A stretch of DNA of 10,904 nucleotides from a virus (IMGVR_UViG_2660238215_000014:1-10904), one strand, 5' to 3'; shown: positions 1-10,904, counted from the stretch's first letter. Numbers and translations: made by a program. Notes: a model not told the origin generated them from the letters alone.

Positions 1-78
1 CCACCAGTATAAGTTATTGATATATAGAAAAATAAAAATTTTTAGTGTCGAATCTGGTTGTTTTTTGTTCATCACTGG
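1..78. repeat. Copy A of a 78-bp imperfect direct repeat (copy B at 8446-8523; 72/78 identical), located 30-108 bp upstream of the terS start
   Basis: Base-by-base alignment of 1-78 with 8446-8523 gives 6 mismatches (positions 7, 14, 26, 29, 30, 55 of the repeat); longest exact blocks are 24 and 23 bp. Contains the 10-bp palindrome AAAAATTTTT (34-43) and TGTTCAtC (66-73), one mismatch from the origin octamer. The window starts inside or at the edge of this repeat, so its leftward extent is unknown. Confidence 0.85.
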
Positions 79-106
79 TGTGTGTTTACATAATTTTCAG
101 GGGGAG
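65..106 (+). promoter_or_regulatory. Putative sigma70-type promoter and ribosome binding site for terS
   Basis: -35-like TTGTTC (65-70), 18-bp spacer, -10-like CATAAT (89-94), Shine-Dalgarno GGGGGAG (100-106) just before ATG 109. Pattern match only; the -10 lies outside the repeated 78 bp and is not conserved in copy B. Confidence 0.3.
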
Positions 107-108
107 TT

Positions 109-585
109 ATGGATCGTGAATTAAAAAATCTGCATCTGAATATTTCCCAACTGGCCGCATTATCCGGTGCTCATCGACAGACTGTTGCGGCTCGGGTAAA
201 AAACATAAGCCCAGCCGGTGGTCATGAGAGCAATCTCAAACTGTACCGACTGACAGATATCCTTGCCGAGCTGATGAAAGCTCCTCTGCCTGTAGATAAC
301 GAGGAAATGGATCCTCATGCGCGTAAAGCATGGTACCAGTCAGAACGTGACCGACTGAAATTTGAGCAGGAAACTGGTCAGCTTGTGCCAGTCAGTGATG
401 TCAGGCGGTCCTTTTCTGTCGTGGTGAAAGCGATAGTTCAGGTACTGGAAACCTGGCCTGACCGGCTGGAGAGGGACAGGGGGTGGACCGCATCACAACT
501 GAATGAAGTACAGATTGTGGTTGATGAGATCCGCGACACACTGGAAAAGGCAGTCATTGACTGTTGTGATGAGGCCGATATGTGA
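109..585 (+). CDS. terS: Phage terminase small subunit (Nu1-like, N-terminal helix-turn-helix DNA-binding domain)
   Basis: 158-aa ORF with good RBS; N-terminal motif LNISQLAALSGAHRQTVAARV resembles the winged-HTH of small terminases; its stop overlaps the start of the gpA-type large terminase ORF (GTGA at 582-585), the classic terS-terL coupling. Confidence 0.65.
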   Translation: MDRELKNLHLNISQLAALSGAHRQTVAARVKNISPAGGHESNLKLYRLTDILAELMKAPLPVDNEEMDPHARKAWYQSERDRLKFEQETGQLVPVSDVRRSFSVVVKAIVQVLETWPDRLERDRGWTASQLNEVQIVVDEIRDTLEKAVIDCCDEADM

Positions 586-1589
586 ATCAGGTGAACGAGA
601 GCCATAGCCGCGCATCCGATATCTGGCGCGAAGTGGCCTCGCTGTTTCGCCCACCCAGCCGGTTACCAGTAGCGGAAGCCATCAGGCGTTATATGCGGGT
701 TCCACGGGGAGCCAATACTTCCGGTCCGTGGGAGTCATCGCTGACGCCCTATATGATTGACCCCATTAATACATTATCAGCCCGTGAATATGACGCGGTG
801 GTGTTTGTGGGACCTGCGCGAACCGGGAAAACCGAAGGGCTGATTGATGGCTGGATTGTGTACGGCATCATCTGTGATCCGGCGGATATGCTGGTGGTGC
901 AGATGACTGAGACGAAGGCGCGTGAGCATTCCAGAACGCGTCTTTCCAGGACGTTTCGCCACAGTCCGGAGGTCAGCAAGCGCCTCAGTCCTTCCCGTAA
1001 TGACAACAACGTCCACGATAAAATGTTTCTTGACGGCTCCTTCCTGAAGATTGGCTGGCCGTCGATCACCGTCTTTTCCTCTTCGGATTACCGTCGTGTG
1101 GCGCTGACGGATTATGACCGTTTCCCTGAAAACGTGGACGGGGAAGGGGATGCCTTCACGCTGGCCTCAAAGCGTACCACCACCTTTATGTCCTCGGGGA
1201 TGACCCTGGTCGAGAGTTCACCGGGGCGGGATATCACCGATACCAAATGGCGTTGTGGTGGCGCACATGAGGCACCGCCAACAACGGGGATCCTGTCACT
1301 GTATAACCGGGGAGACCGCCGCCGGTGGTACTGGCCGTGTCCGCACTGCGGGGAATATTTTCAGCCGGTGATGGATAACATGACCGGATACCGGAATAAC
1401 CCGGATTTTGTGGCTGCCGGTCAGGCTGCCCGTCTGATGTGTCCGCATTGTCGCGGGCTGATTGCCCCTGAGCAGAAACGCGAACTGAATAACCAGGGGA
1501 TCTGGCTTCGTGAAGGTGAACGGGCGGCGGCGGACGGCAGTATCACCGGAACGCCACGAAACTCCCGGATTGCGTCATTTTGGATGTAG
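582..1589 (+). pseudogene. terL: Large terminase, lambda gpA family, N-terminal fragment only (335 aa versus about 640 aa expected)
   Basis: Walker A GPARTGKT; paired CxxC motifs (CPHCGEYF ... CPHCRGL) as in lambda gpA from memory; gpA-like similarity continues to the last residues (GIWLREG ... ASFWM), then a TAG stop at 1587-1589 coincides with a sharp shift to AT-rich non-coding DNA. No continuation in any frame. Confidence 0.8.
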
Positions 1590-1750
1590 GGTACATTTCT
1601 TACCTGTTTGTATGTTCTGGTGTCGATTCATAGTCTTTTCAATGAGTTGTGATTTTATGAGTTTCCTCTCTTTGCTTGATAATGAGTTAGTTTATCGCTT
1701 GTTATTGGCTTGAATGGACTACATGACGGACTAAAAAATGAGGGCGATAG

Positions 1751-2989
1751 ATGTCGGTAAAGCCATTAACCGTGACTGAAGTTAAGGGGATGAAACCACG
1801 TGAAAAGGACTATGCCGTTTATGATGGGTTCGGTTTATTGCTGAATGTGAGTAAAGCCGGTGGGAAAGTGTGGCGTTTCCGTTATAGCCATCCGATAACG
1901 AAGAAACGGCAGACATACACGATAGGACGTTTTCCTGAATTCTCACTCGCGGAAGCACGGGAAGTACGTGATGAACTTCGGCGAATGATTGCACGTGGAG
2001 TTGATCCAGTGACGGAGAAGAAAAATCGTAAAATTGAGATGTCACTAAAAAATCTACAGACATTTGAAGCTGTTGCTAATGCATGGTTCGCTTTTAAAAA
2101 GGGATCTGAATTGCGGAAACCTACGCTGTATAATATCGAATATGAAGTATACAAATATCTTGTTCCTTTCTTTGGTAAGTACAGTATAGAAAAAATTACA
2201 GCACCAGTAGCTATTAATGCTCTGGATGCCGTATCCGATAAGAATGCGTTGCAAAAAAAATTAATATCAAGATTAAATGAAATTATGAATTATGCTGTAA
2301 ATTGTGGAGCATTGAAAGCAAATCCATTACTTAAGATAAAGACTGCATTCACAGGAAAGAAAAATAAATCATTAGCAGCACTACCTGTTGAAAGATTGCC
2401 TGAATTTCTGAGCTGGTGGGATAGTGTGCCTCATACCTATCAAATAGCTCATAATGCACTTTTATTCCAGATATTGACAATGGTTAGGCCAGGTGAGGCG
2501 ATTAAAGCAGAGTGGTCAGAGATTGATTTTGATTCTGGCTTGTGGATTATCCCCGCGCATAAAATGAAATGCCATCGTGAACATGTTGTTCCCTTGTCAT
2601 CACAGGCTATTAGTATCCTCAGAACAATGCAGGAAATAAAAAGAGGGCGTTATGTGTTTTTTTCCTCCAGAACAAAAGATGCGCCTATGGGGAGGAATAC
2701 TATCAAGACCCCAATTGCTGCCAGCAAGTTCAAAGGGATTGTAACGTTACATGGTTTTCGTTCAATGTGGAGTACGCTTTTAAATGAGGAGGGATTTAAC
2801 CCCGATGTAATCGAGGCTGCATTGGCGCATAAAAGTGGTGATAAAATAAGAGATATTTATAATAGAACTATTTATCTAGAACAGCGTAAGATCATGATGC
2901 AATGGGTCGGTGATTTTTTTGATGATGCGAGAAAAGGGGTAATTAATAGATCCGGTGGTATGAAAGGTTTAAGAGTAGTAAATGGTTGA
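1751..2989 (+). CDS. int: Tyrosine site-specific integrase, P4-like family (N-terminal arm-binding domain plus catalytic domain)
   Basis: 412 aa; N-terminus GLLLNVSKAGGKVWRFRYSHP...GRFPEFSLAEAREVRDEL matches the P4-type integrase arm-binding domain; C-terminal catalytic signature R (MVRPGEA), HGFRSMWST, LAHKSGDKIRDIYNRTIY with terminal Tyr. RBS GAGGG 6 nt upstream. Gene is markedly more AT-rich than its neighbours. Confidence 0.9.
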   Translation: MSVKPLTVTEVKGMKPREKDYAVYDGFGLLLNVSKAGGKVWRFRYSHPITKKRQTYTIGRFPEFSLAEAREVRDELRRMIARGVDPVTEKKNRKIEMSLKNLQTFEAVANAWFAFKKGSELRKPTLYNIEYEVYKYLVPFFGKYSIEKITAPVAINALDAVSDKNALQKKLISRLNEIMNYAVNCGALKANPLLKIKTAFTGKKNKSLAALPVERLPEFLSWWDSVPHTYQIAHNALLFQILTMVRPGEAIKAEWSEIDFDSGLWIIPAHKMKCHREHVVPLSSQAISILRTMQEIKRGRYVFFSSRTKDAPMGRNTIKTPIAASKFKGIVTLHGFRSMWSTLLNEEGFNPDVIEAALAHKSGDKIRDIYNRTIYLEQRKIMMQWVGDFFDDARKGVINRSGGMKGLRVVNG

Positions 2990-3002
2990 GGAGGTTCAGC
3001 AA

Positions 3003-3206
3003 ATGAATACCAATGAAGATATTTTATTTACTAAAGACGTAATGAAAATCTTGCGATATGGAGCAATGAGTGCATTCATCAATTTCTGGAAAGATGAGAA
3101 TAATGGTTTTCCTCAGCCGTTCAGAATTGGACGACGACATACCTGGCACCGTAGAGATGTAGAAGCATGGTTAGATAAACAACGAGAACAGGCCAATCCC
3201 CACTAA
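3003..3206 (+). CDS. alpA: AlpA/Vis-like small HTH transcriptional regulator or excisionase
   Basis: The track ORF starts at 2982, but a strong SD GAGGAGG (2988-2994) sits 8 nt before the in-frame ATG at 3003, giving 67 aa. Motif FPQPFRIGRRHTWHRRDVEAWL fits the AlpA family (FP-P-ilG-r---W---dV--Wl). Immediately downstream of int in the same orientation, as in P4 (vis) and Gram-negative PICIs. Confidence 0.75.
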   Translation: MNTNEDILFTKDVMKILRYGAMSAFINFWKDENNGFPQPFRIGRRHTWHRRDVEAWLDKQREQANPH

Positions 3207-3220
3207 TAATATCTTTCATA

Positions 3221-3245
3221 CCCCGCGTGCAATGCGGGGTTTTTT
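3221..3245 (+). terminator. Rho-independent terminator after int-alpA
   Basis: Stem CCCCGC (3221-3226), loop GTGCAAT, stem GCGGGG (3234-3239), followed by TTTTTT (3240-3245). Confidence 0.7.
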
Positions 3246-3265
3246 GTATGTGAGGTAAAAAAGAA

Positions 3266-3847
3266 ATGAATAAAAATATTGCCGTGACGGGCAAGGGTGA
3301 CGCACGTCATGTAAAAAAATTCTGTGATATTCGTGATCTGGTCGTTCTGCGCTTTGATAGTGTGAACGTTCGCGTGGTGTATCTGAACGGCGATCCGTGG
3401 TTTGTTGCAAAGGATGTTTGTGTTGCTCTGGAAATAAGTAACTCACGCGATGCTCTAAAAGCACTAGATGCGGATGAAAAGAAAACCGTCGCTTTAAGCT
3501 ACGGTATTCGAGGAAATCCAAATCATAGCCTCATTTCTGAATCCGGTTTTTACAAGCTGATCGCCAGAAGTCGGAAAGCTGTTACTCCTGGCACGTTCGC
3601 CCATCGTTTCAGTAACTGGGTATTCAGGAATGTGATACCGGGTATCAGAAAAACGGGGGCTTATGGTATCCCGTGGGGTGTAGTACAGGATTTTTCCCGC
3701 CGCAAAGAGCAATACCAGATAAGTGCCAGCGAGAAGGGGAGGGCGCTACAGGCATGTAAGCGCAAAAAACGTGAACTGGAGGAAGAAGAAAAAAGGCTGA
3801 TACGTGAATATCAGCCTGAGTTTTACTTTGGCAACCGCATTCAGTGA
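3266..3847 (+). CDS. Bro-N domain protein (antirepressor-like N-terminal domain, short coiled-coil-like C-terminus, no obvious KilA-C domain)
   Basis: 193 aa; hallmark Bro-N motifs VRVVYLNGDPWFVAKDVCVALEI ... SGFYKLIARSRKAVTPGTFAHRFSNWVFRNVIPGIRKTGAYG; SD GAGG 10 nt upstream of ATG 3266; C-terminal 50 aa rich in K/R/E. Confidence 0.8.
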   Translation: MNKNIAVTGKGDARHVKKFCDIRDLVVLRFDSVNVRVVYLNGDPWFVAKDVCVALEISNSRDALKALDADEKKTVALSYGIRGNPNHSLISESGFYKLIARSRKAVTPGTFAHRFSNWVFRNVIPGIRKTGAYGIPWGVVQDFSRRKEQYQISASEKGRALQACKRKKRELEEEEKRLIREYQPEFYFGNRIQ

Positions 3848-3879
3848 CAAAACAAAGGCGACCCGGATCAGAGGTCGCC
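3847..3879 (-). terminator. Putative rho-independent terminator for the minus-strand RHH gene
   Basis: Inverted repeat GGCGACC (3857-3863) / GGTCGCC (3873-3879) with 9-nt loop; on the minus strand the hairpin is followed by TTTGTTTTGT (complement of 3847-3856). Confidence 0.5.
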
Positions 3880-3970
3880 AATGGGAAAACACTAAACATA
3901 AGCCCAAACATCATAGCGATTTGTTGGCTGGTGGGCAATGTGATCAGTGTGCTGGCTTGCTGGTGGATTG

Positions 3971-4153
3971 TCAGCCTTTTGGTTCTATGCCTTCTTTGCG
4001 TAGCTTGTCACGACAGGCATTTTTAACCCATGAACTGAAATTACCAGGCCCAGCAACTTCGTTAATTTGTTGCAACAATGTGTCTTCGAAGCGGATGTTT
4101 TTCTTTGTGCTGCCGGAGCGATCAAATTTTGGTTTCTCATTTTTTTCTTGCAT
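3971..4153 (-). CDS. Small ribbon-helix-helix (Arc/CopG-like) DNA-binding protein; candidate repressor of the element
   Basis: 60 aa; segment KKNIRFEDTLLQQINEVAGPGNFSSWVKNACRDKL has the beta-strand / helix / G-x-S / helix pattern of RHH proteins. It is the only convincing minus-strand gene, divergent from the rightward operon, with palindromic operators at its 5' side and a hairpin terminator at its 3' side. Confidence 0.5.
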   Translation of the reverse strand: MQEKNEKPKFDRSGSTKKNIRFEDTLLQQINEVAGPGNFSSWVKNACRDKLRKEGIEPKG

Positions 4154-4198
4154 TGGTACGTACCACCATTATAAACTGAAACCCAATGGTACGTACCA
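4154..4198. promoter_or_regulatory. Two copies of the perfect 12-bp palindrome TGGTACGTACCA (4154-4165 and 4187-4198) bracketing a -10-like TATAAA; putative operator pair in the divergent promoter region
   Basis: Both copies read directly; 33 bp centre to centre (about 3 helical turns). Rightward -35-like TTGCAT (4148-4153) and -10-like TATAAA (4170-4175); on the minus strand a perfect TATAAT lies between the palindromes (complement of 4167-4172). Confidence 0.6.
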
Positions 4199-4298
4199 TG
4201 TTGAAGATACGCAACCATTAAATACAGCGAAGCCCCGCAGTGGTGGAACACTCGCAGGGCTTCTAACCACCAACGATAGCAAGATTATCGAGGTAGCT

Positions 4299-4490
4299 AT
4301 GTTAAATCATACCACACACCCGCAAGGGCGGGACTTGCACAACCTGAATAAATTCACCTGGCGTTTTATCGCCCTGAGCACGGCACAACCGCGCGTGATT
4401 ACCATTGAGGCCACCAGCGAACAGGAAGCACGCCAGCAATCTCCTGATGGCTGCGTGATGGTATTCGCTGCCCGTATTCGTCAGGGGTAA
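4299..4490 (+). CDS. Small hypothetical protein (63 aa), first gene of the rightward operon; function unknown
   Basis: ATG 4299 preceded by GAGG (4289-4292); corresponds to the C-terminal in-frame part of track ORF 3804-4490, whose upstream part looks non-coding. I have a vague, unverifiable recollection of Icd-like annotations on similar small proteins. Confidence 0.45.
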   Translation: MLNHTTHPQGRDLHNLNKFTWRFIALSTAQPRVITIEATSEQEARQQSPDGCVMVFAARIRQG

Positions 4491-4493
4491 GTC

Positions 4494-4859
4494 ATGCATA
4501 ACCTGTCAATTTCTGACCTTAACTGCATTCAGTTTGACGAGAAATTTACCGGGCAGCTACTGGTCCATGTGGAGAACGGGCGCATAGTGCGTAATTACCA
4601 CCTGCCGGATGGTGCAATTGCCGGAAGCGTTGAAGCATTGCTGGAACTGGCAGAACGTGCGCGACTGATTAAGCCGTTAACGAACCATCACGATGATGAT
4701 CTGCATTTTACCGGACGCATGGTGAGTCACTACGAAAACGGCGTCGAGGTATCCCGCGAACGGCTGCGTGATGATTGCTGTTTCGGCACACTGCCGGAAT
4801 TTATCGAGTTGCTGACCAGTTGCGGTTATCAGGTCATTCAGGGGGGTAAACATGCGTGA
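4494..4859 (+). CDS. Hypothetical protein (121 aa) made of two tandem copies of a roughly 50-aa domain (FTG-x-LV-x3-ENG ... L-x-ELL)
   Basis: SD AGGGG 7 nt upstream. Internal duplication visible in the translation: FTGQLLVHVENGRIVRNYHLPDGAIAGSVEALLELAERA versus FTGRMVSHYENGVEVSRERLRDDCCFGTLPEFIELLTSC. Confidence 0.6.
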   Translation: MHNLSISDLNCIQFDEKFTGQLLVHVENGRIVRNYHLPDGAIAGSVEALLELAERARLIKPLTNHHDDDLHFTGRMVSHYENGVEVSRERLRDDCCFGTLPEFIELLTSCGYQVIQGGKHA

Positions 4860-5085
4860 TGATCGTTTTAATTCCCTGAAACGGGAATTTGATGGCGCAC
4901 AGGAAGATGCAGCGGGCGCATTGTTGAGCGTTGCTGACATGATGAAAGCTGCATATTTTCTTATCAATACCAGTGGCTACAAGTCAGAGGGTGAAATGAT
5001 TCTTAGTATTGCGTCGGACTATGCGGAATATGTGGCAGAGACGCGTTACAGAAGAAAATTCACGGAGGATGTAAGCCATGCATAA
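4852..5085 (+). CDS. Hypothetical protein (77 aa)
   Basis: ATG overlaps the end of the previous gene by 8 nt; SD GGGGGG upstream; acidic, helical-looking sequence, no recognisable motif. Confidence 0.5.
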   Translation: MRDDRFNSLKREFDGAQEDAAGALLSVADMMKAAYFLINTSGYKSEGEMILSIASDYAEYVAETRYRRKFTEDVSHA

Positions 5086-5279
5086 TCATGAAGCGCATGT
5101 ACCCGTAGTGCTTAATGTGCCAGATGATTTCACCGGACGCGTACTGGTTTACCTGGATAAAGGGAAAGTGAAATCACAATGCCGACTGAAAAGTAATGAG
5201 ATTGTTGGTTCTCCTGAATTTTTTTTCTGAACTTTGTATTCGTGCGGAAATAAAACCGGAACTGCTGACAGGAAAATAA
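5078..5279 (+). pseudogene. Third copy of the FTG domain (paralog of 4494-4859), interrupted by a frameshift at a T8 homopolymer (5219-5226)
   Basis: ATG 5078 overlaps the previous stop (ATGCATAA). Frame 1 gives MHNHEAHVPVVLNVPDDFTGRVLVYLDKGKVKSQCRLKSNEIVGSPEFFF* (stop 5228-5230); the +1 frame continues SELCIRAEIKPELLTGK* (stop 5277-5279), which aligns with the ELAERARLIKPL part of the paralog. Not in the ORF track because each piece is under 60 aa. Confidence 0.5.
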
Positions 5280-5283
5280 AACC

Positions 5284-5574
5284 ATGAAAAAGAAAAATTC
5301 TGGCTTTACTGCCAGCGGCCTCTCTCGGCCTGAAATCCGCCCCGGTGATATTTTCCGGGACACCAGACGCGGTGGACGGGTGGTTATTCGTCACGTTACG
5401 CCAGGCAATATCACCTACCGCCGTGAGGCTTACGAATATGACTGCGTAATGCCGCGCCGTCAGTTTGATCGTGATTTTATTCTGGTGGAAAACAAACAAC
5501 AGGCAGTGGCGAGACGTGCAGCCACGAATATTAAAAAAATCCGGGCAATGTTGGTTGCGGGAGGTAAGAAGTGA
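5284..5574 (+). CDS. Hypothetical basic protein (96 aa), immediately upstream of and coupled to pri-rep
   Basis: ATG 5284 after AAAACC; stop overlaps the GTG start of the primase gene (GTGA 5571-5574); K/R-rich, no recognisable motif. Confidence 0.5.
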   Translation: MKKKNSGFTASGLSRPEIRPGDIFRDTRRGGRVVIRHVTPGNITYRREAYEYDCVMPRRQFDRDFILVENKQQAVARRAATNIKKIRAMLVAGGKK

Positions 5575-7370
5575 AAAACGCACCGAGTCTAAAATATCAG
5601 CTGAAGGATAAATTCACTGAGGTAATCATTTTTGCCGGGACGGATGCTTACGCCCATGCTCAACACTGGATTGAAAGTGAAGGACGAAAACACGGCGATA
5701 ACGTGCCTCCTGTTTACCTGGGGCCAAAGCAACTGGCAGACCTGGCGAATATCCGCATTATTGACGAGAAACGCCGTTTTGCGCGTGTCTATATCGCGGG
5801 GGAGATAGAGCCAATCCAGATCAATACTATCGCTGAAAAGCTGGCGCTGGCTGGCGTACAGGAGGCGAAATTATACAAAGGTATCACCGACCAGGAACCG
5901 GAGAACTGGCGCGACTACCTGCAACGGATCCGCGAACAGGCTGAGCACGGGGAAGTTTCAGTGATGAAATTAGCTACAAAAAATAGTGGTCTACCCAAGC
6001 CTGCATTAAATCAGATGGGAGCCAGCCAGAGAGGGGAAGTGTTACTTGAACATTATGGAGGAGCACTGGCGATTCATGCTGACTCTGACACTGTTCACCA
6101 TTACAACGGCGTTGTATGGGAGCCAGTACAGGATAAAGAATTACAGCGAGCTATGGCACAGATTTTCATTGATGCGGAGATCAGCTATTCGCAGAACGCC
6201 ATTAAATCGGCGGTAGATACCATGAAGTTAAGTTTGCCTGTAATGGGGAATACAGCCCGTAACCTGATTGGATTCAGTAACGGTGTTTTTGATACCCGGA
6301 CAGGCGATTTTCGGGAGCATAACAAAAACGACTGGTTGTTAATTGCCAGTGAATTACCTTTCAGCCCACCAGCAGAGGGGGAAACGCTGGCAACACATGC
6401 GCCGAATTTCTGGAAGTGGTTACGCCGTTCGGTGGCTGAGAATGACCGCAAGGCGGATCGCGTACTGGCTGCATTATTCATGGTGCTGGCGAACCGGTAC
6501 GACTGGCAGTTATTCATTGAGGTAACAGGTCCAGGGGGAAGTGGTAAAAGCGTGATGGCGGAGATTTGCACCATGCTGGCGGGTAAGGCCAACACGGTAT
6601 CGGCAAGCATGAAGGCGCTGGAAGATGCCAGGGAACGCGCGTTAGTGGTTGGCTTTTCGCTGATTATCATGCCGGATATGACCCGCTACGCTGGTGATGG
6701 GGCAGGGATTAAGGCTATTACAGGCGGTGACAAGGTGGCAATTGACCCGAAACACAAAGCCCCCTACTCAACGCGTATTCCGGCAGTAGTGCTGGCGGTT
6801 AACAATAACGCCATGTCATTCAGTGACCGCAGCGGGGGGATCTCACGTCGTCGGGTGATATTCAATTTTTCGGAAGTTGTACAGGAGAACGAACGCGATC
6901 CAATGCTGGCGGAAAAAATAGAAGGTGAGCTGGCGGTAGTGATTCGCCATCTGCTTACACGGTTTGCTGACCAGGACGAAGCCAGACGCCTGTTATATGA
7001 GCAGCAGAAATCTGAAGAAGCACTGGCGATAAAGCGAGAGGGGGATTCGCTGGTGGACTTCTGCGGCTATCTCATGGCGTCGGTAATGTGTGATGGCCTG
7101 TTAGTGGGTAATGCTGAAATTGTACCATTCAGCCCACGCAGGTATCTCTATCATGCCTATCTGGCTTATATGCGGGCACATGGGTTTGGTAAACCTGTAA
7201 CACTGACTCGCTTCGGTAAAGATATGCCGGGGGCAATGGCGGAATATGGCAGGGAGTATATGAAACGGAAAACGAAGCACGGTTTGCGTTCAAACGTGAC
7301 ACTGATGGAGGAATCAGAAGACTGGATGCCATCATGTGTATCGGTCACTAATGACGATAGCAAAAATTAA
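5571..7370 (+). CDS. Replication initiator primase/helicase (pri-rep; P4 alpha-like / D5-type SF3 helicase with P-loop)
   Basis: 599 aa, GTG start with SD GGAGGT (5560-5565); Walker A GPGGSGKS near residue 310 with downstream hydrophobic strand and acidic motif (LIIMPDMT); N-terminal region resembles a primase/Toprim-like domain; cognate iteron origin lies immediately 3' of the gene. Confidence 0.8.
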   Translation: MKNAPSLKYQLKDKFTEVIIFAGTDAYAHAQHWIESEGRKHGDNVPPVYLGPKQLADLANIRIIDEKRRFARVYIAGEIEPIQINTIAEKLALAGVQEAKLYKGITDQEPENWRDYLQRIREQAEHGEVSVMKLATKNSGLPKPALNQMGASQRGEVLLEHYGGALAIHADSDTVHHYNGVVWEPVQDKELQRAMAQIFIDAEISYSQNAIKSAVDTMKLSLPVMGNTARNLIGFSNGVFDTRTGDFREHNKNDWLLIASELPFSPPAEGETLATHAPNFWKWLRRSVAENDRKADRVLAALFMVLANRYDWQLFIEVTGPGGSGKSVMAEICTMLAGKANTVSASMKALEDARERALVVGFSLIIMPDMTRYAGDGAGIKAITGGDKVAIDPKHKAPYSTRIPAVVLAVNNNAMSFSDRSGGISRRRVIFNFSEVVQENERDPMLAEKIEGELAVVIRHLLTRFADQDEARRLLYEQQKSEEALAIKREGDSLVDFCGYLMASVMCDGLLVGNAEIVPFSPRRYLYHAYLAYMRAHGFGKPVTLTRFGKDMPGAMAEYGREYMKRKTKHGLRSNVTLMEESEDWMPSCVSVTNDDSKN

Positions 7371-7382
7371 ACTTATGGAATA

Positions 7383-7613
7383 ACTGTTCACCACTGTTCA
7401 CCCTGTCATAAATATCTTTTATATCAGTATATTATAGGGTGAACAGTTATTTATTAACTGTTCACCAAACTATTCACTGTTCACCTTTTTGATTGTTTAT
7501 TGAGCTTCAAGGGTGAACAGTGGTGAACAGTTGGTGAATAGTTTTTGTGAAACTGTTCACCAATTAACATTATGAATTAAAAGATAAAATATCAAAAGGT
7601 GAACAGGTGAAGG
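7383..7613. repeat. Replication origin: array of TGTTCACC iterons in both orientations with AT-rich spacers
   Basis: Perfect forward copies at 7385-7392, 7395-7402, 7459-7466, 7478-7485, 7554-7561; perfect inverted copies (GGTGAACA) at 7438-7445, 7512-7519, 7522-7529, 7598-7605; degenerate copies at 7471-7478, 7533-7540, 7606-7613; AT-rich stretches 7403-7437 and 7562-7597. Confidence 0.85.
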
Positions 7614-7657
7614 GTTAAAACGCAAAAATTTTAATTTACTGCTGTGAGATAAAGCCT

Positions 7658-7903
7658 ATGACAGCGAAGCACACAAAAAAATCACAATCGCACGCCCTTG
7701 ATTTGACGGAACACTGGTTAAGGGTGTCGATAAAAATCATCGACCGCAACGCCGGGGAAGGATATGCGAAAGCACATCCCGAACTAATAATCGCATTCAT
7801 GACCACGGCGGCGGCAAACTTTGCCACGCTGACGGAACGGGAGATTGCCGAAGCGGAACAGGTAACAACCATCAACGTTAAAACCGGAGAGGTGGAATCA
7901 TGA
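7658..7903 (+). CDS. Hypothetical protein (81 aa)
   Basis: ORF downstream of the origin; its stop overlaps the SSB-like start (ATGA 7900-7903), suggesting an operon; no recognisable motif. Confidence 0.4.
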   Translation: MTAKHTKKSQSHALDLTEHWLRVSIKIIDRNAGEGYAKAHPELIIAFMTTAAANFATLTEREIAEAEQVTTINVKTGEVES

Positions 7904-8323
7904 CAGCACAGATAGCCGCTTACGGGCGGCTGGTGGACGACCCGCAGGTAAAACAGACCAGCAAGGGCACACCGATGACGCTGGCGCGTATGGCGGTCCC
8001 CCCTTCCGTGCAGCCAGGCAGATGACGGAACGGCGACGATGTGGTTATCCGTCCTGGCATTTGGCAGACAGGCCGAAGCACTGGAAAGGCACCGCAAGGG
8101 TGAACTCCTGAGCGTGGCGGGTAACATGCAGATCAGCCAGTGGACTGGGCAGAACGGAGAAACGCGGCAGGGCTGGCAGGTTATCGCAGACAGTGTAATC
8201 AGTGCGCGAACGGCGCGACTGGGCGGCAAAAAAGGTCAACAAGGCCAGGCTACTGACGCGCTGAACAGGGCAAAACAACAGGCGGGGAATGATGATCCGT
8301 ACGGGGATAACATACCGTTTTAA
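7900..8323 (+). pseudogene. ssb: Single-stranded DNA-binding (SSB)-like gene split by a frameshift at a C6 run (7998-8003)
   Basis: Frame 1 from ATG 7900: MTAQIAAYGRLVDDPQVKQTSKGTPMTLARMAV..., resembling the SSB N-terminus ([27 protein letters not shown]), stop at 8023-8025. Frame 2 open from 7979 through track ORF 8039-8323: ...WLSVLAFGRQAEALERHRKGELLSVAGNMQISQWTGQNGETRQGWQVIADSV ... DNIPF, resembling the SSB OB-fold core and IPF tail. Confidence 0.6.
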
Positions 8324-8339
8324 GCGACGAGTGACAGAA

Positions 8340-8361
8340 GCCGGAGCAATCCGGCTTTTTT
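8340..8361 (+). terminator. Rho-independent terminator after the SSB-like gene
   Basis: Stem GCCGGA (8340-8345), loop GCAA, stem TCCGGC (8350-8355), then TTTTTT (8356-8361). Confidence 0.75.
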
Positions 8362-8445
8362 ACGGGTCCTCCTGGCGGGGTGGGCCTGAACACGGGGCGA
8401 CGGGCGCGGAAAAAGGCGCATTTTTTGATTTTTATGGCACCATCA

Positions 8446-8523
8446 CCACCACTATAAGCTATTGATATATTGAGGAATAAAAATTTTTAGTGTCGAATCA
8501 GGTTGTTTTTTGTTCATCACTGG
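8446..8523. repeat. Copy B of the 78-bp imperfect direct repeat (copy A at 1-78)
   Basis: See copy A. Weaker homology continues about 25 bp further (TTTACA ... CAGG) with an indel. In copy B the -10-like element of copy A is replaced (CAAAAA in place of CATAAT). Confidence 0.85.
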
Positions 8524-8790
8524 AACGTTCCCGAAAACATTTACAAAAAAACAGGCGCAAAAAAAAGCGCCCCCGATTGCTGTTACCGGAGGCGCTTTTA
8601 CACGACAAAGGAGTTTTTATCGCCAGGATGACGAGTCTTAATATTGCTTCAATGGCAAAAATGCGTCAATGGCTTTGCCTCTCTGAGAATAATCAGAAAA
8701 AACATAATCTGATTTTCAGGTAGAAAATGATTTATCTATTGCTTTTATCGATCAATAATGATGCCCGTTAATCAAAACGGAGGCGGATTT

Positions 8791-8985
8791 ATGCCAGAGA
8801 ACAACACCAGAAAGCCGGATAAAAGTGCCACGGTACACATAGACGCCGGAACTATGGAGAAGATCGAACGCTATCAGCAGTTCATCAAAGATAATCACCC
8901 GGGTATGCCGGTACCCACGAAAGGACAAATCACACGCAGCGCGGTTGAATACTGGTACCAGGCAACGTTAGGAGCCTGGCTATGA
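8791..8985 (+). CDS. Small hypothetical protein (65 aa from ATG 8791; track start 8758), possibly RHH-like, translationally coupled to the protease-capsid gene
   Basis: Strong SD GGAGG (8779-8783) 7 nt before ATG 8791; stop overlaps the capsid ORF start (ATGA 8982-8985); pattern ATVHIDAGTMEKIERYQQFIK ... TKGQITRSAVEYWYQA is compatible with a beta-strand / helix / helix fold. Confidence 0.45.
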   Translation: MPENNTRKPDKSATVHIDAGTMEKIERYQQFIKDNHPGMPVPTKGQITRSAVEYWYQATLGAWL

Positions 8986-10871
8986 AAACATGGTTTTCCA
9001 TTAAGGCTATGGCAGATGTTGTCTATGTGCGTATTTATGACGAGATCGGCGGGTACGGTGTAAAAGCATCGACACTTACTGACGAGATCAACGCGTGCGG
9101 TAATGCGTCTGAAATCCATCTTCGCATCCATTCACCTGGTGGCGACATCTTTGAAGGGCTGGCTATCTATAACGCCCTGAAAAATCATCCGGCAAAGAAA
9201 ATTGTACACATTGAAGGCATGGCGGCTTCTATGGCCTCGTTTATTGCCATGTGTGGCGATCACATCGTTATGCCTGAAAACGCGATGATGATGATACATG
9301 CCCCCCGTGGTGTTACTGCCGGAGTGTCGGGCGACGTTCGCCGCTTTGCTGACCTGATGGACAAGCTGGGCGACACGATGGCGGAAACCTACGCCGGAAG
9401 AACGGGCAGGAGCAAACAGGAGATCACCTCAATGATGGAGGCGGAAACCTGGATGGATGGCAATGAGTGTAAGGCTAACGGCTTCGCAGATGAGGTTATA
9501 CCCGCGATTACAGCAATGGCCCGAATTGAATCAAAACGAATCGGAGATTTTTCAAATATGCCGGAAAAAATTAAAAGCATGATCAGCCAGAAAACTGGCA
9601 GTGGCGAACAGGAACGACTTAACGGAATCCGTGAATTGTTTGGCACCTTCAACGGAAGATATAACGACCTGGCTATAAGTTGTCTTGCGGATTCAGAATG
9701 TAGCGTTGAGAATGCACGCGAACGCCTTTTACTCGCTATGGGTAAAGAATCAACGCCAACAAACAAAACCACCCCCGCAAATCTTTACTACGCGTACACG
9801 GATAACGGCAATATAACCGGCGATGCCATGCGTCAGGGGCTTAATGCGCGTCTTGGTCACGAACGGGCCGAACGCGGTAATCCTTACGCCATGATGAGCC
9901 TTTTCGATATGGCACAGGCATCATTAACCCATCGTGGTATAAGCACGGGCAGCTACAGCACACGCTCGCAGATAGTAAACGCGGCATTCACCCACAGCAG
10001 CAGCGATTTTACCGATATCCTTGCTGGTGGCGCTGAAAAATCAGTGCTTGCAGGCTGGGAGCACAGCGGCGAAACATTCCGCCAGTGGACGAAAAAAGGT
10101 TCCCTTTCAAACTTCCGGGAAGCCCGCCGCGTTGGTATGAATGGCTTCTCAACGTTAAACAAAGTGCCGGAAGGGGCAGAATATAAATACATCACCACCA
10201 GCGATCGCGGTGAACCCATCGCGCTGGCTACTTACGGGAATATTTTCAGTATTACCCGCCAGGCGATAATCAATGATGACCTTGATCAGTTATCAACGGT
10301 GCCAATGGCTATGGGCCGTGCAGCATCAAGAACGGTGGGAAATCTGGTTAATCTGGTGCTTACAGGCAACGTAAAACTTTCTGACGGAATAACGCTGTTT
10401 GACAAAAAACACAGCAACCTGATTGAAACAGGACTGACAACACCGGGACTTAGTGCAGCACGTCACCTGATGCGCACACAGAAGGACAAAAATGGCGAAG
10501 TGCTGAATATTGCGCCTAAATTCCTTTTAGTTCCGGCAGCACTGGAAGATCGCGCGTTGCAGATGATTAACTCAACCGCACCTTTCGGGGCTGATAAAAA
10601 CAGCGGGATCTTTAACCCGTATCACAAGCTACTTGATATCATCGTCGATCCCCGCCTTGATGATATCAGCGAAAAACAATGGTACATGCTTTCCGCACAG
10701 GGAACGGACACAATCGAGGTGGCTTATCTTGATGGCAATGACGAGCCTTACCTTGAACAGCAGGAAGGTTTTATCGTTGACGGCGTGGCCTGGAAAGTCC
10801 GTATTGATGCAGGTGTGGCAGCTCTGGATTATCGCGGTATGGTCAAATCAGGCGGGACAGATTCACTATGA
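8982..10871 (+). CDS. Prohead serine protease (ClpP/S14-like) fused to an HK97-fold major capsid protein
   Basis: 629 aa; N-terminal region has ClpP-like signatures (HSPGGDIFEGLAIYNAL, catalytic Ser context GMAASMASF, His context MMMIHAP); the C-terminal 350 aa or so resemble phage major capsid proteins; followed directly by a strong terminator, typical of a highly expressed capsid gene. Confidence 0.8.
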   Translation: MKTWFSIKAMADVVYVRIYDEIGGYGVKASTLTDEINACGNASEIHLRIHSPGGDIFEGLAIYNALKNHPAKKIVHIEGMAASMASFIAMCGDHIVMPENAMMMIHAPRGVTAGVSGDVRRFADLMDKLGDTMAETYAGRTGRSKQEITSMMEAETWMDGNECKANGFADEVIPAITAMARIESKRIGDFSNMPEKIKSMISQKTGSGEQERLNGIRELFGTFNGRYNDLAISCLADSECSVENARERLLLAMGKESTPTNKTTPANLYYAYTDNGNITGDAMRQGLNARLGHERAERGNPYAMMSLFDMAQASLTHRGISTGSYSTRSQIVNAAFTHSSSDFTDILAGGAEKSVLAGWEHSGETFRQWTKKGSLSNFREARRVGMNGFSTLNKVPEGAEYKYITTSDRGEPIALATYGNIFSITRQAIINDDLDQLSTVPMAMGRAASRTVGNLVNLVLTGNVKLSDGITLFDKKHSNLIETGLTTPGLSAARHLMRTQKDKNGEVLNIAPKFLLVPAALEDRALQMINSTAPFGADKNSGIFNPYHKLLDIIVDPRLDDISEKQWYMLSAQGTDTIEVAYLDGNDEPYLEQQEGFIVDGVAWKVRIDAGVAALDYRGMVKSGGTDSL

Positions 10872-10877
10872 CAACAA

Positions 10878-10899
10878 GGCGGCACCAGCCGCCTTTTTT
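10878..10899 (+). terminator. Rho-independent terminator after the capsid gene
   Basis: Stem GGCGGC (10878-10883), loop ACCA, stem GCCGCC (10888-10893), then TTTTTT (10894-10899). Confidence 0.75.
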
Positions 10900-10904
10900 G
10901 CGGG

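Follow-up and report, generated by a model that had tools for sequence, protein, structure and literature searches.

The viral sequence IMGVR_UViG_2660238215_000014:1-10904, analysed here as a single window of 10,904 nt, joins the packaging genes of a lambdoid prophage to a satellite inserted in the prophage gene for the large terminase subunit (terL). It carries a 78-bp direct repeat, with copy A ahead of the prophage gene for the small terminase subunit (terS) and copy B within the satellite, and comparison with phage lambda supports the repeat as the cosB (terminase-binding) part of a lambda-type cos site. Copy A is, on this homology, the packaging site of the prophage, in the order cosQ–cosN–cosB–terS–terL, and copy B belongs to one of two predicted cos sites on a ~10.2-kb satellite lying in the same orientation as the prophage terL. 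Copy B probably acts as a cos of a helper-embedded phage-inducible chromosomal island (PICI) that would be used by the type-1 terminase. The homology with lambda cos, the position of the copies, the boundaries of the insertion and the co-variation of cosB with the small terminase protein TerS are observed; from them we infer binding, cutting and packaging.

The direct repeat between positions 1-78 and 8446-8523 had been described in an initial annotation of the window as 92% identical, and this was borne out, with 72 identities over 78 positions, while the longest comparable repeat in shuffled windows did not exceed 16 nt (20 mononucleotide shuffles). The palindrome AAAAATTTTT (34-43 and 8479-8488) and the motif TGTTCATC, termed a near-iteron in that annotation (66-73 and 8511-8518), are both present in each copy. 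The weaker homology claimed for about 25 bp further downstream was not recovered, the next 30 nt matching at 8 positions, which is the level of chance. The homology grows upstream instead, as seen in the closest complete genome, that of E. coli O111:H8 8E, whose corresponding locus (L001) is 97% identical to the window. There, the A/B homology covers 166 bp at ~93% identity (17913-18078 versus 26407-26573), and L001 17913-18078 also aligns to positions 8358-8523 of the window. The repeat is seen as only 78 bp because the 5´ edge of the window cuts copy A. A third, partial copy (copy C) begins after the capsid gene: the last three bases of the window (10902-10904) are the first three of its GGGTCCT. 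Related genomes show copy C to be a complete cos, with a cosB of type 2. An Rfam search of the window gave no match at the gathering threshold.

The alignment of copy A with lambda cos reaches a local score of 43, as compared with 17.7 +/- 2.4 for shuffled sequences, and a 29-nt block ending in GGGTCCT in the full unit of copy A matches lambda at 26 of 29 positions. In lambda, the right end reads ATGATAATCATTATCACTTTACGGGTCCT, 23 nt and ACG, and the left end then continues with GGGCGGCGACCT; in copy A the order is ATGATAACCATTATCATTTTTCGGGTCCT, 24 nt and ACG, then GGGCGGGCGGCG. The nick context ACG/GGGCGG (the slash marking the nick) is common to both, at a near-equal distance from GGGTCCT, with 24 nt in copy A, in copy B of the window and in copy C versus 23 nt in lambda. 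The heptamer GGGTCCT occupies lambda bp 48473-48479, which we take to be cosQ; Wieczorek and Feiss reportedly defined the lambda cosQ, in 2001, as this same heptamer. Counting from the predicted left end, position 1 of the window corresponds to predicted bp 52 of cos, and the ATG of terS to predicted bp 160 (191 in lambda). A 12-nt 5´ overhang has been inferred for mEp213 and its relative LLS, in which virion-DNA reads stop short of the cos region (PMC12315714), and the predicted nick of copy A coincides with the position of that overhang. The parts of the three copies that lie in the window are as follows:

1-78, + strand: cosB part of copy A, from the prophage cos, by sequence comparison
1-10: R3-like motif CCACCAGTAT of copy A
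10-22, minus strand: integration host factor (IHF) consensus TATCAATAACTTA of copy A
8341-8361, + strand: hairpin and T-run directly 5´ of the copy B cosQ, read from the sequence
8364-8406, + strand: left part of copy B, with cosQ GGGTCCT (8364-8370), a 24-nt spacer and the predicted cosN
8395-8406, + strand: predicted cosN, or 12-nt cohesive-end segment, of copy B, GGGCGACGGGCG
8407-8523, + strand: right part of copy B, type-1 cosB, predicted bp 13-129
8455-8467, minus strand: IHF consensus of copy B
within 8407-8523: R3-like motif of copy B, altered to CCACCACTAT
10878-10904, + strand: hairpin and T-run, then the first three bases of the copy C cosQ

The proposal that the 78 bp form a cos-like site stands for the cosB part, with cosQ and cosN falling outside the repeat (at 8364-8406 for copy B, and beyond the window for copy A). 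Copy A does lie immediately 5´ of terS, in a prophage with a gpA-type TerL, as had been stated for phages with Nu1/gpA terminases, but the TerS is of the Pfam DUF1441 family and not Nu1. The cohesive-end sequence GGGCGGGCGGCG also differs from that of lambda, and the R elements are putative.

An exact IHF consensus is found on the minus strand at bp 61-73 of the type-1 copies; it is kept in copy A and in every B copy, and is lacking in type-2 cosB. The type-1 phage copies further contain an inverted pair of short motifs, CACCAGTG and CACTGGTG, around an A/T-rich centre, which recalls the R3-I1-R2 arrangement of lambda and is disrupted in copy B. The core GGTT..TTTTTGTTC, at predicted bp ~104-119 of cos (53-69 and 8498-8514 in the window), does not vary among the 24 cos sites aligned, which include both cosB types. 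In 23 of them the full block GGTTGTTTTTTGTTC is also unchanged; this block has a near-identical copy in mEp460 and may be a common protein-binding element. Since the so-called near-iteron sits in a block conserved in the phage cos of both cosB types, it is not an iteron of a replication origin.

Two types of cos site can be distinguished by cosB. The cosQ–cosN left part is 86-97% identical across all cos copies; identity in the cosB part drops to 57-61% between types, against 78-94% within a type. The corresponding TerS proteins share 34 of their first 60 residues and are identical over residues 91-158. In all of 67 phage sites from viral contigs, each cosB type goes with its own TerS N-terminal type, and lambda and phage 21 are known to show such pairing as well. 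Compared pair by pair, copy B shares 83-87% identity in cosB with type-1 helpers, and the cosB of copy C is 80-87% identical to the type-2 reference. By BLAST, the right half of copy C is 84-88% identical to the Shiga toxin phages Stx2a/Stx2d and to VT1-Sakai, in which the type-2 region is located directly upstream of a DUF1441 TerS. Across the composites of satellite and prophage, copy B is always type 1 and copy C always type 2, whatever the prophage; the helpers are type 1 in the window and four others, type 2 in three and of an unrelated third type in one. On these pairings copy B is not a fresh copy of the neighbouring copy A, and the A/B likeness in the window arises because this helper happens to be type 1.

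The boundaries of the satellite were sought by comparison with the intact terL of phage CP-1639, which placed a 12-bp att core, TTGGATG(G/T)AGGG (TTGGATGKAGGG), at 1580-1591 and at L001 29829-29840. The distance between these cores is ~10.2 kb, and because both lie within terL, the region corresponds to a ~10.2-kb satellite inside the terL of a lambdoid prophage. Copy B, which had been placed inside or at the edge of a satellite-like element, is inside it, 3.3 kb within attR. This internal position, together with the homology to lambda cos, supports the earlier suggestion that a cos-like packaging site of the phage is also carried by the satellite. By its gene layout, the element is a helper-embedded PICI, co-oriented in the prophage terL, which it splits without supplying a replacement. 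It fits the traits of Gram-negative PICIs, namely int, alpA and pri-rep followed by the origin, unidirectional genes and a length of ~10.2 kb in the 10-20 kb range. The same terL insertion is found in nine composites. The genes and att cores are the following:

109-585, + strand: terS of the prophage, Pfam DUF1441, phrog_141 small terminase, 'type 1' N-terminal variant
582-1589, + strand: N-terminal fragment (ATPase domain) of the gpA-type terL, ending at a TAG stop made by the satellite junction
1580-1591, + strand: attL core TTGGATGTAGGG
L001 29829-29840, beyond the window: attR core TTGGATGGAGGG
1751-2989, + strand: tyrosine integrase, in the satellite integration zone (1751-3206)
2982-3206, + strand: AlpA-like helix-turn-helix protein/excisionase, in the same zone
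3266-5574, mixed strands: Bro/regulatory zone of the satellite, including small open reading frames (ORFs)
3266-3847, + strand: BRO-N protein of the satellite
3971-4153, minus strand: YlcI/YnfO of the satellite
~4302-4490, + strand: Icd-like protein of the satellite (phrog 'transcriptional repressor')
5571-7370, + strand: primase/helicase of the satellite with D5_N, DUF5906 and Pox_D5 domains (D5/P4-type)
7370-7620: iteron array CTGTTCACC, in both orientations and with nested inverted repeats, directly after the primase gene
7658-7903, + strand: orf81 of the satellite
7900-8323, + strand: ssb of the satellite, with a +1 frameshift near 7998
8758-8985, + strand: orf75, phrog_4934, function unassigned, a satellite late gene
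8982-10871, + strand: fusion of a ClpP-type prohead protease and major capsid protein, a satellite late gene

The iteron array at 7370-7620 is presumed to be the origin of the satellite. The ssb frameshift falls in a run of C and splits the gene into ORFs at 7900-8025 and 8039-8323; L001 and the other composites have an unbroken gene of 423 nt. Beyond the window, as seen in L001, the nuclease half of terL resumes ~1 kb past the window end; after it come the portal gene, the protease/capsid gene of the prophage itself and tail genes like those of lambda. The satellite protease/capsid fusion and the prophage's own (L001 32655-34633) share 50-55% protein identity.

Helper-embedded PICIs (HE-PICIs) were published in 2023, with 11capE in prophage 50icd as the type element (Tommasini, Mageeney & Williams; PMC10111431). 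In that system, 11capE has a 258-bp, 90% identical sequence at the cos position in common with its helper, and HE-PICIs show a doubled DNA motif flanking the attP core (PMC10111431). Like 11capE, the satellite described here is of the PICI type, is co-oriented inside a late gene of a lambdoid prophage, follows the zone order int/alpA, Bro, replication and late, with a capsid gene in the late zone, and shares a cos-bearing sequence with its helper. The primase, orf81 and SSB are 85%, 95% and 80% identical to their counterparts in 11capE. In contrast, the integrase (1751-2989 versus L015 9504-10739) is only 25% identical and AlpA finds no match, which suggests that helper-embedding may have arisen with a second integrase lineage. 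The insertion site differs as well: here it lies in a terL of the gpA family, whereas the gene-A sites described in the available part of the published catalogue belong to the Terminase_1 family, and no gpA-type site is among those named there (PMC10111431). Furthermore, 11capE has one cos-like site, after the capsid gene (the C position), as opposed to two in this satellite.

Two cos sites per island are also known from EcCICFT073, where both are functional, cos1 acts together with Rpp and a phage cosB is missing from both (PMC6092414, PMC6739421, PMC9026076). This comparison is based on the published work (Fillol-Salom 2018, 2019; Feiss review, PMC9026076) and on the PICI of E. coli Nissle 1917, as a search of NC_004431 between 1.395 and 1.480 Mb for EcCICFT073 returned only the icd prophage. 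As in the present satellite, EcCICFT073 and other Rpp-type PICIs carry two cos per island, whose cosQ and cosN hardly differ from those of lambdoid helpers; their packaging needs the helper TerS and TerL, and one of the two cos is dispensable. The Nissle 1917 PICI has cos at both the B and the C positions, the first following ssb and the second the capsid genes. Of these two, one contains a type-2-like cosB; the other has the exact cosN of lambda and is followed by a TerS-like gene, whose 180-aa product has no match in the Protein Data Bank (PDB), and by a homologue of orf93, an ORF shared with this satellite. Rpp-type PICIs lack a phage-like cosB and rely on Rpp heterodimerising with TerS, whereas both cos of this satellite have a recognisable phage cosB, of two specificity types. 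At the sequence level, orf81, orf75 and orf93 match no Rpp (139-154 aa, winged helix-turn-helix) or TerS chain in the PDB and no terminase PHROG; likewise, the prophage TerS gave no match to Rpp or lambda TerS in PDB sequence and PHROG searches.

More distant systems share single traits. P4 and the cos-type S. aureus pathogenicity islands (SaPIs) SaPIbov5 and SaPIbov4 carry the helper cos and are packaged by the helper terminase, and SaPIbov4 also has two putative cos sites, but their gene sets and hosts are unrelated to those considered here. P4 resizes P2 capsids with Sid, and no size-determination gene was identified in this satellite. Capsid-forming PICIs (cf-PICIs) resemble it in encoding a major capsid protein; as far as the available portion of the literature describes, they encode all the proteins for their own capsids and DNA packaging and take only tails from the helper, whereas this satellite has only the protease/capsid fusion, without terminase or portal.

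The following mechanism can be proposed for copy B. Upon induction, the satellite would excise by means of Int and AlpA, restoring terL, and would replicate from its own primase and iterons. The prophage type-1 TerS, aided by IHF bending, would then bind the cosB of copy B and place TerL, with cosN being nicked at ~8394/8395 and 8406/8407. Packaging would proceed rightward, with a second cut at the next cos having a cosQ. Copy C, with its type-2 cosB, would play the same role with type-2 terminases.

Several observations weigh against copy B as a working cos of the type-1 terminase, most of them arising from a survey of 73 phage cos, 24 copy C and 37 copy B sites. cosQ is intact in all phage (73/73) and all C sites (24/24), but in only 13 of the 37 B sites, being mutated to AGGTACT in the other 24; a smaller, earlier count had given 11/30 intact in B versus 67/67 in phages (Fisher p = 8e-13, for samples that are phylogenetically non-independent). 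The cosN core GGGCGGGCGGCG is present in 50 phage sites and 23 C sites, and the B core is variable, of 12-14 nt and mostly GGGCGGAGGGGCG, a form absent from phages. A G-to-C change in the R3-like motif, at predicted bp 58 of cos (position 7 in copy A, 8452 in copy B), is fixed in 37/37 B copies, and all 37 have lost the inverted partner arm, which is kept in 31/31 type-1 phage sites. The nucleotide diversity of the copy B cosB (pi 0.030) is no lower than that of the neighbouring intergenic DNA (0.031). The occurrence of a third, unrelated cosB/TerS type in the resident prophage of one composite implies that the embedding prophage is not always a matching packager. Physical ends give no help: most related phage records are not linearised at cos and show no clear termini, and in IMG/VR, the sequence to the right of the nick was matched at 97 loci, but almost all of these are prophages called in isolate genomes, where the match is internal and gives no evidence of ends (the same loci were reused for the survey of cos context). 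One record, LR595868, has its break 5 nt to the left of the predicted nick, although its depositors may have picked that start.

This erosion is what would be expected if copy B were a vestigial or dispensable second cos of phage descent and the satellite were packaged only from copy C, the main rival explanation, which is possible but less likely. It would agree with 11capE, whose cos is only at the C position, and with EcCICFT073, in which deletion of cos2 left transfer unreduced and raised lambda-mediated transfer. Against it, cosQ, the 12-nt cosN and the IHF site of copy B are all intact in the window, where the cosN sequence (GGGCGACGGGCG) is one met nowhere else; cos2 of EcCICFT073 is still functional when cloned; and the classical PICI of Nissle 1917 has a cos at the same position, right after ssb, which indicates that the position is long-lived. 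With copy C kept at phage grade and copy B eroded, the principal site would seem to be copy C, and copy B is probably secondary, in the manner of cos2 in EcCICFT073. The idea that loss of cosQ at B tracks the cos type of the helper was rejected, as B copies without cosQ occur with both type-1 and type-2 helpers. The fixed differences from phage sites sit at the place of lambda R3 (bp 50-65), and classical PICIs use a non-phage cosB read by Rpp–TerS, so copy B might instead be a site of altered specificity for a modified terminase complex, or a decoy by which a multicopy satellite would soak up helper TerS and interfere with the phage. This is unlikely, given that at the sequence level nothing resembling Rpp or TerS turned up among the proteins of the satellite late zone and that the remainder of cosB is plainly type-1 phage sequence.

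The remaining explanations concern how the repeat came about or what else it might do. Helper late genes are known to be captured by PICI late zones (PMC10111431), the left part of copy B exists as two sharply different haplogroups, suggesting segment replacement, and more than one replication module occurs with this late zone; all this would suit a by-product of recombination or late-gene capture, a mosaic junction without a function of its own. Such an account would explain origin and not persistence, and it is improbable: the unit begins exactly at cosQ and ends within cosB with no phage genes flanking it, identity between the capsid genes of satellite and prophage is only 50-55%, and the downstream flank of copy B is in no phage record. 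A promoter or late-activator cassette shared by terS and the satellite capsid operon is very improbable. Both copies do stand upstream of late-type genes, but promoter scans found no + strand sigma-70-like site in or beside either of them, the sequence is homologous to lambda cos, and copy B stops 234 bp before orf75. In lambdoid phages, the late genes depend for their transcription on pR´ and Q antitermination rather than on a promoter at cos. The negative promoter scans also leave without support the initial argument that a -10-like element present in copy A had been lost from copy B. Finally, the copies are same-orientation direct repeats bracketing an integrase-bearing element, as att duplications of one integrated element would be. 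This reading is rejected, since the comparison with uninterrupted terL maps the true cores elsewhere, with copy A 1.5 kb outside attL and with B and C inside the satellite. Use of copy B as a cos by the type-1 terminase is retained as the probable reading.

That a satellite carries the cos of its helper is a known packaging route, and the finding is therefore real but largely expected. One lead is less ordinary, namely that each of the two cos sites may serve its own helper specificity group. Tentatively, they would be non-redundant, each being a complete phage-type cos for a different terminase group, with type-1 and type-2 TerS, respectively. An equally tentative reading of the same kind can be made for the Nissle PICI, with one cos like that of DUF1441 phages (type-2-like cosB) and another with the lambda-type cosN. 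If this were true, two lambdoid helper lineages could package one satellite without an Rpp adaptor, and the frequent loss of cosQ at copy B would be adaptive, dropping termination there and leaving the initiation elements cosN and cosB. It would also account for the so-far unexplained second cos of EcCICFT073-like islands.

The satellite extends the published helper-embedded PICI phenomenon to a terminase-gene site that is apparently uncatalogued, with an integrase 25% identical to that of the type element, and it is present in many Shiga-toxin-producing E. coli. As it splits terL, the prophage would be without terminase production until the satellite leaves. The predicted packaging sites of the satellite are of two terminase specificities. 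Should both be functional, a wider set of prophages would be able to spread such islands in strains with many lambdoid prophages, and cosB/TerS specificity could be studied in a simple natural system other than lambda and phage 21.

Other features of the locus concern the flanks of the cos sites and the late genes. The satellite cos copies are all directly preceded by a G+C-rich hairpin with a T-run abutting cosQ (8341-8361 and 10878-10900), and the same arrangement precedes the cos sites of the Nissle PICI (L017 ~9010-9034 and ~11450-11474); phage cos copies carry ATGATAAYCATTATCA at that place. The hairpin at 8341 was identified by reading the sequence and does not appear among the results of the terminator scan. 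The start of the capsid fusion gene is overlapped by orf75, with a small ORF at the same place in the Nissle PICI; its single-sequence AlphaFold model is weak (pLDDT 65) and consists of two helices. The 93-aa orf93 (phrog_1561; L001 29177-29458, also L017 12449-12730) begins ~196 bp after copy C, where terS follows in a phage cos, and is conserved in the classical PICI of Nissle 1917; a PDB sequence search with it gave no match. The prophage's own protease/capsid gene is frameshifted in L001.

SpLE2 of strain Sakai was considered as this same element and rejected, as it occupies a different locus. Sp7 of O157 Sakai has been described as a lambdoid/P4-like chimera whose Int is P4-like and which also has a Vis homologue and a broken alpha-like gene (Asadulghani et al. 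2009, PMC2669165). It excises spontaneously, its DNA has been found in particles (PMC2669165), and it may be a relative of this satellite family. In E. coli O111:H21 15A (L016; NZ_CP077477 474604-496036, at 8223-9623 and 9890-13077), a late zone 99% identical to positions 7718-10904 of the window is joined to a RepA-type helicase module in place of the primase, and the prophage there carries the third, unrelated TerS/cosB type.

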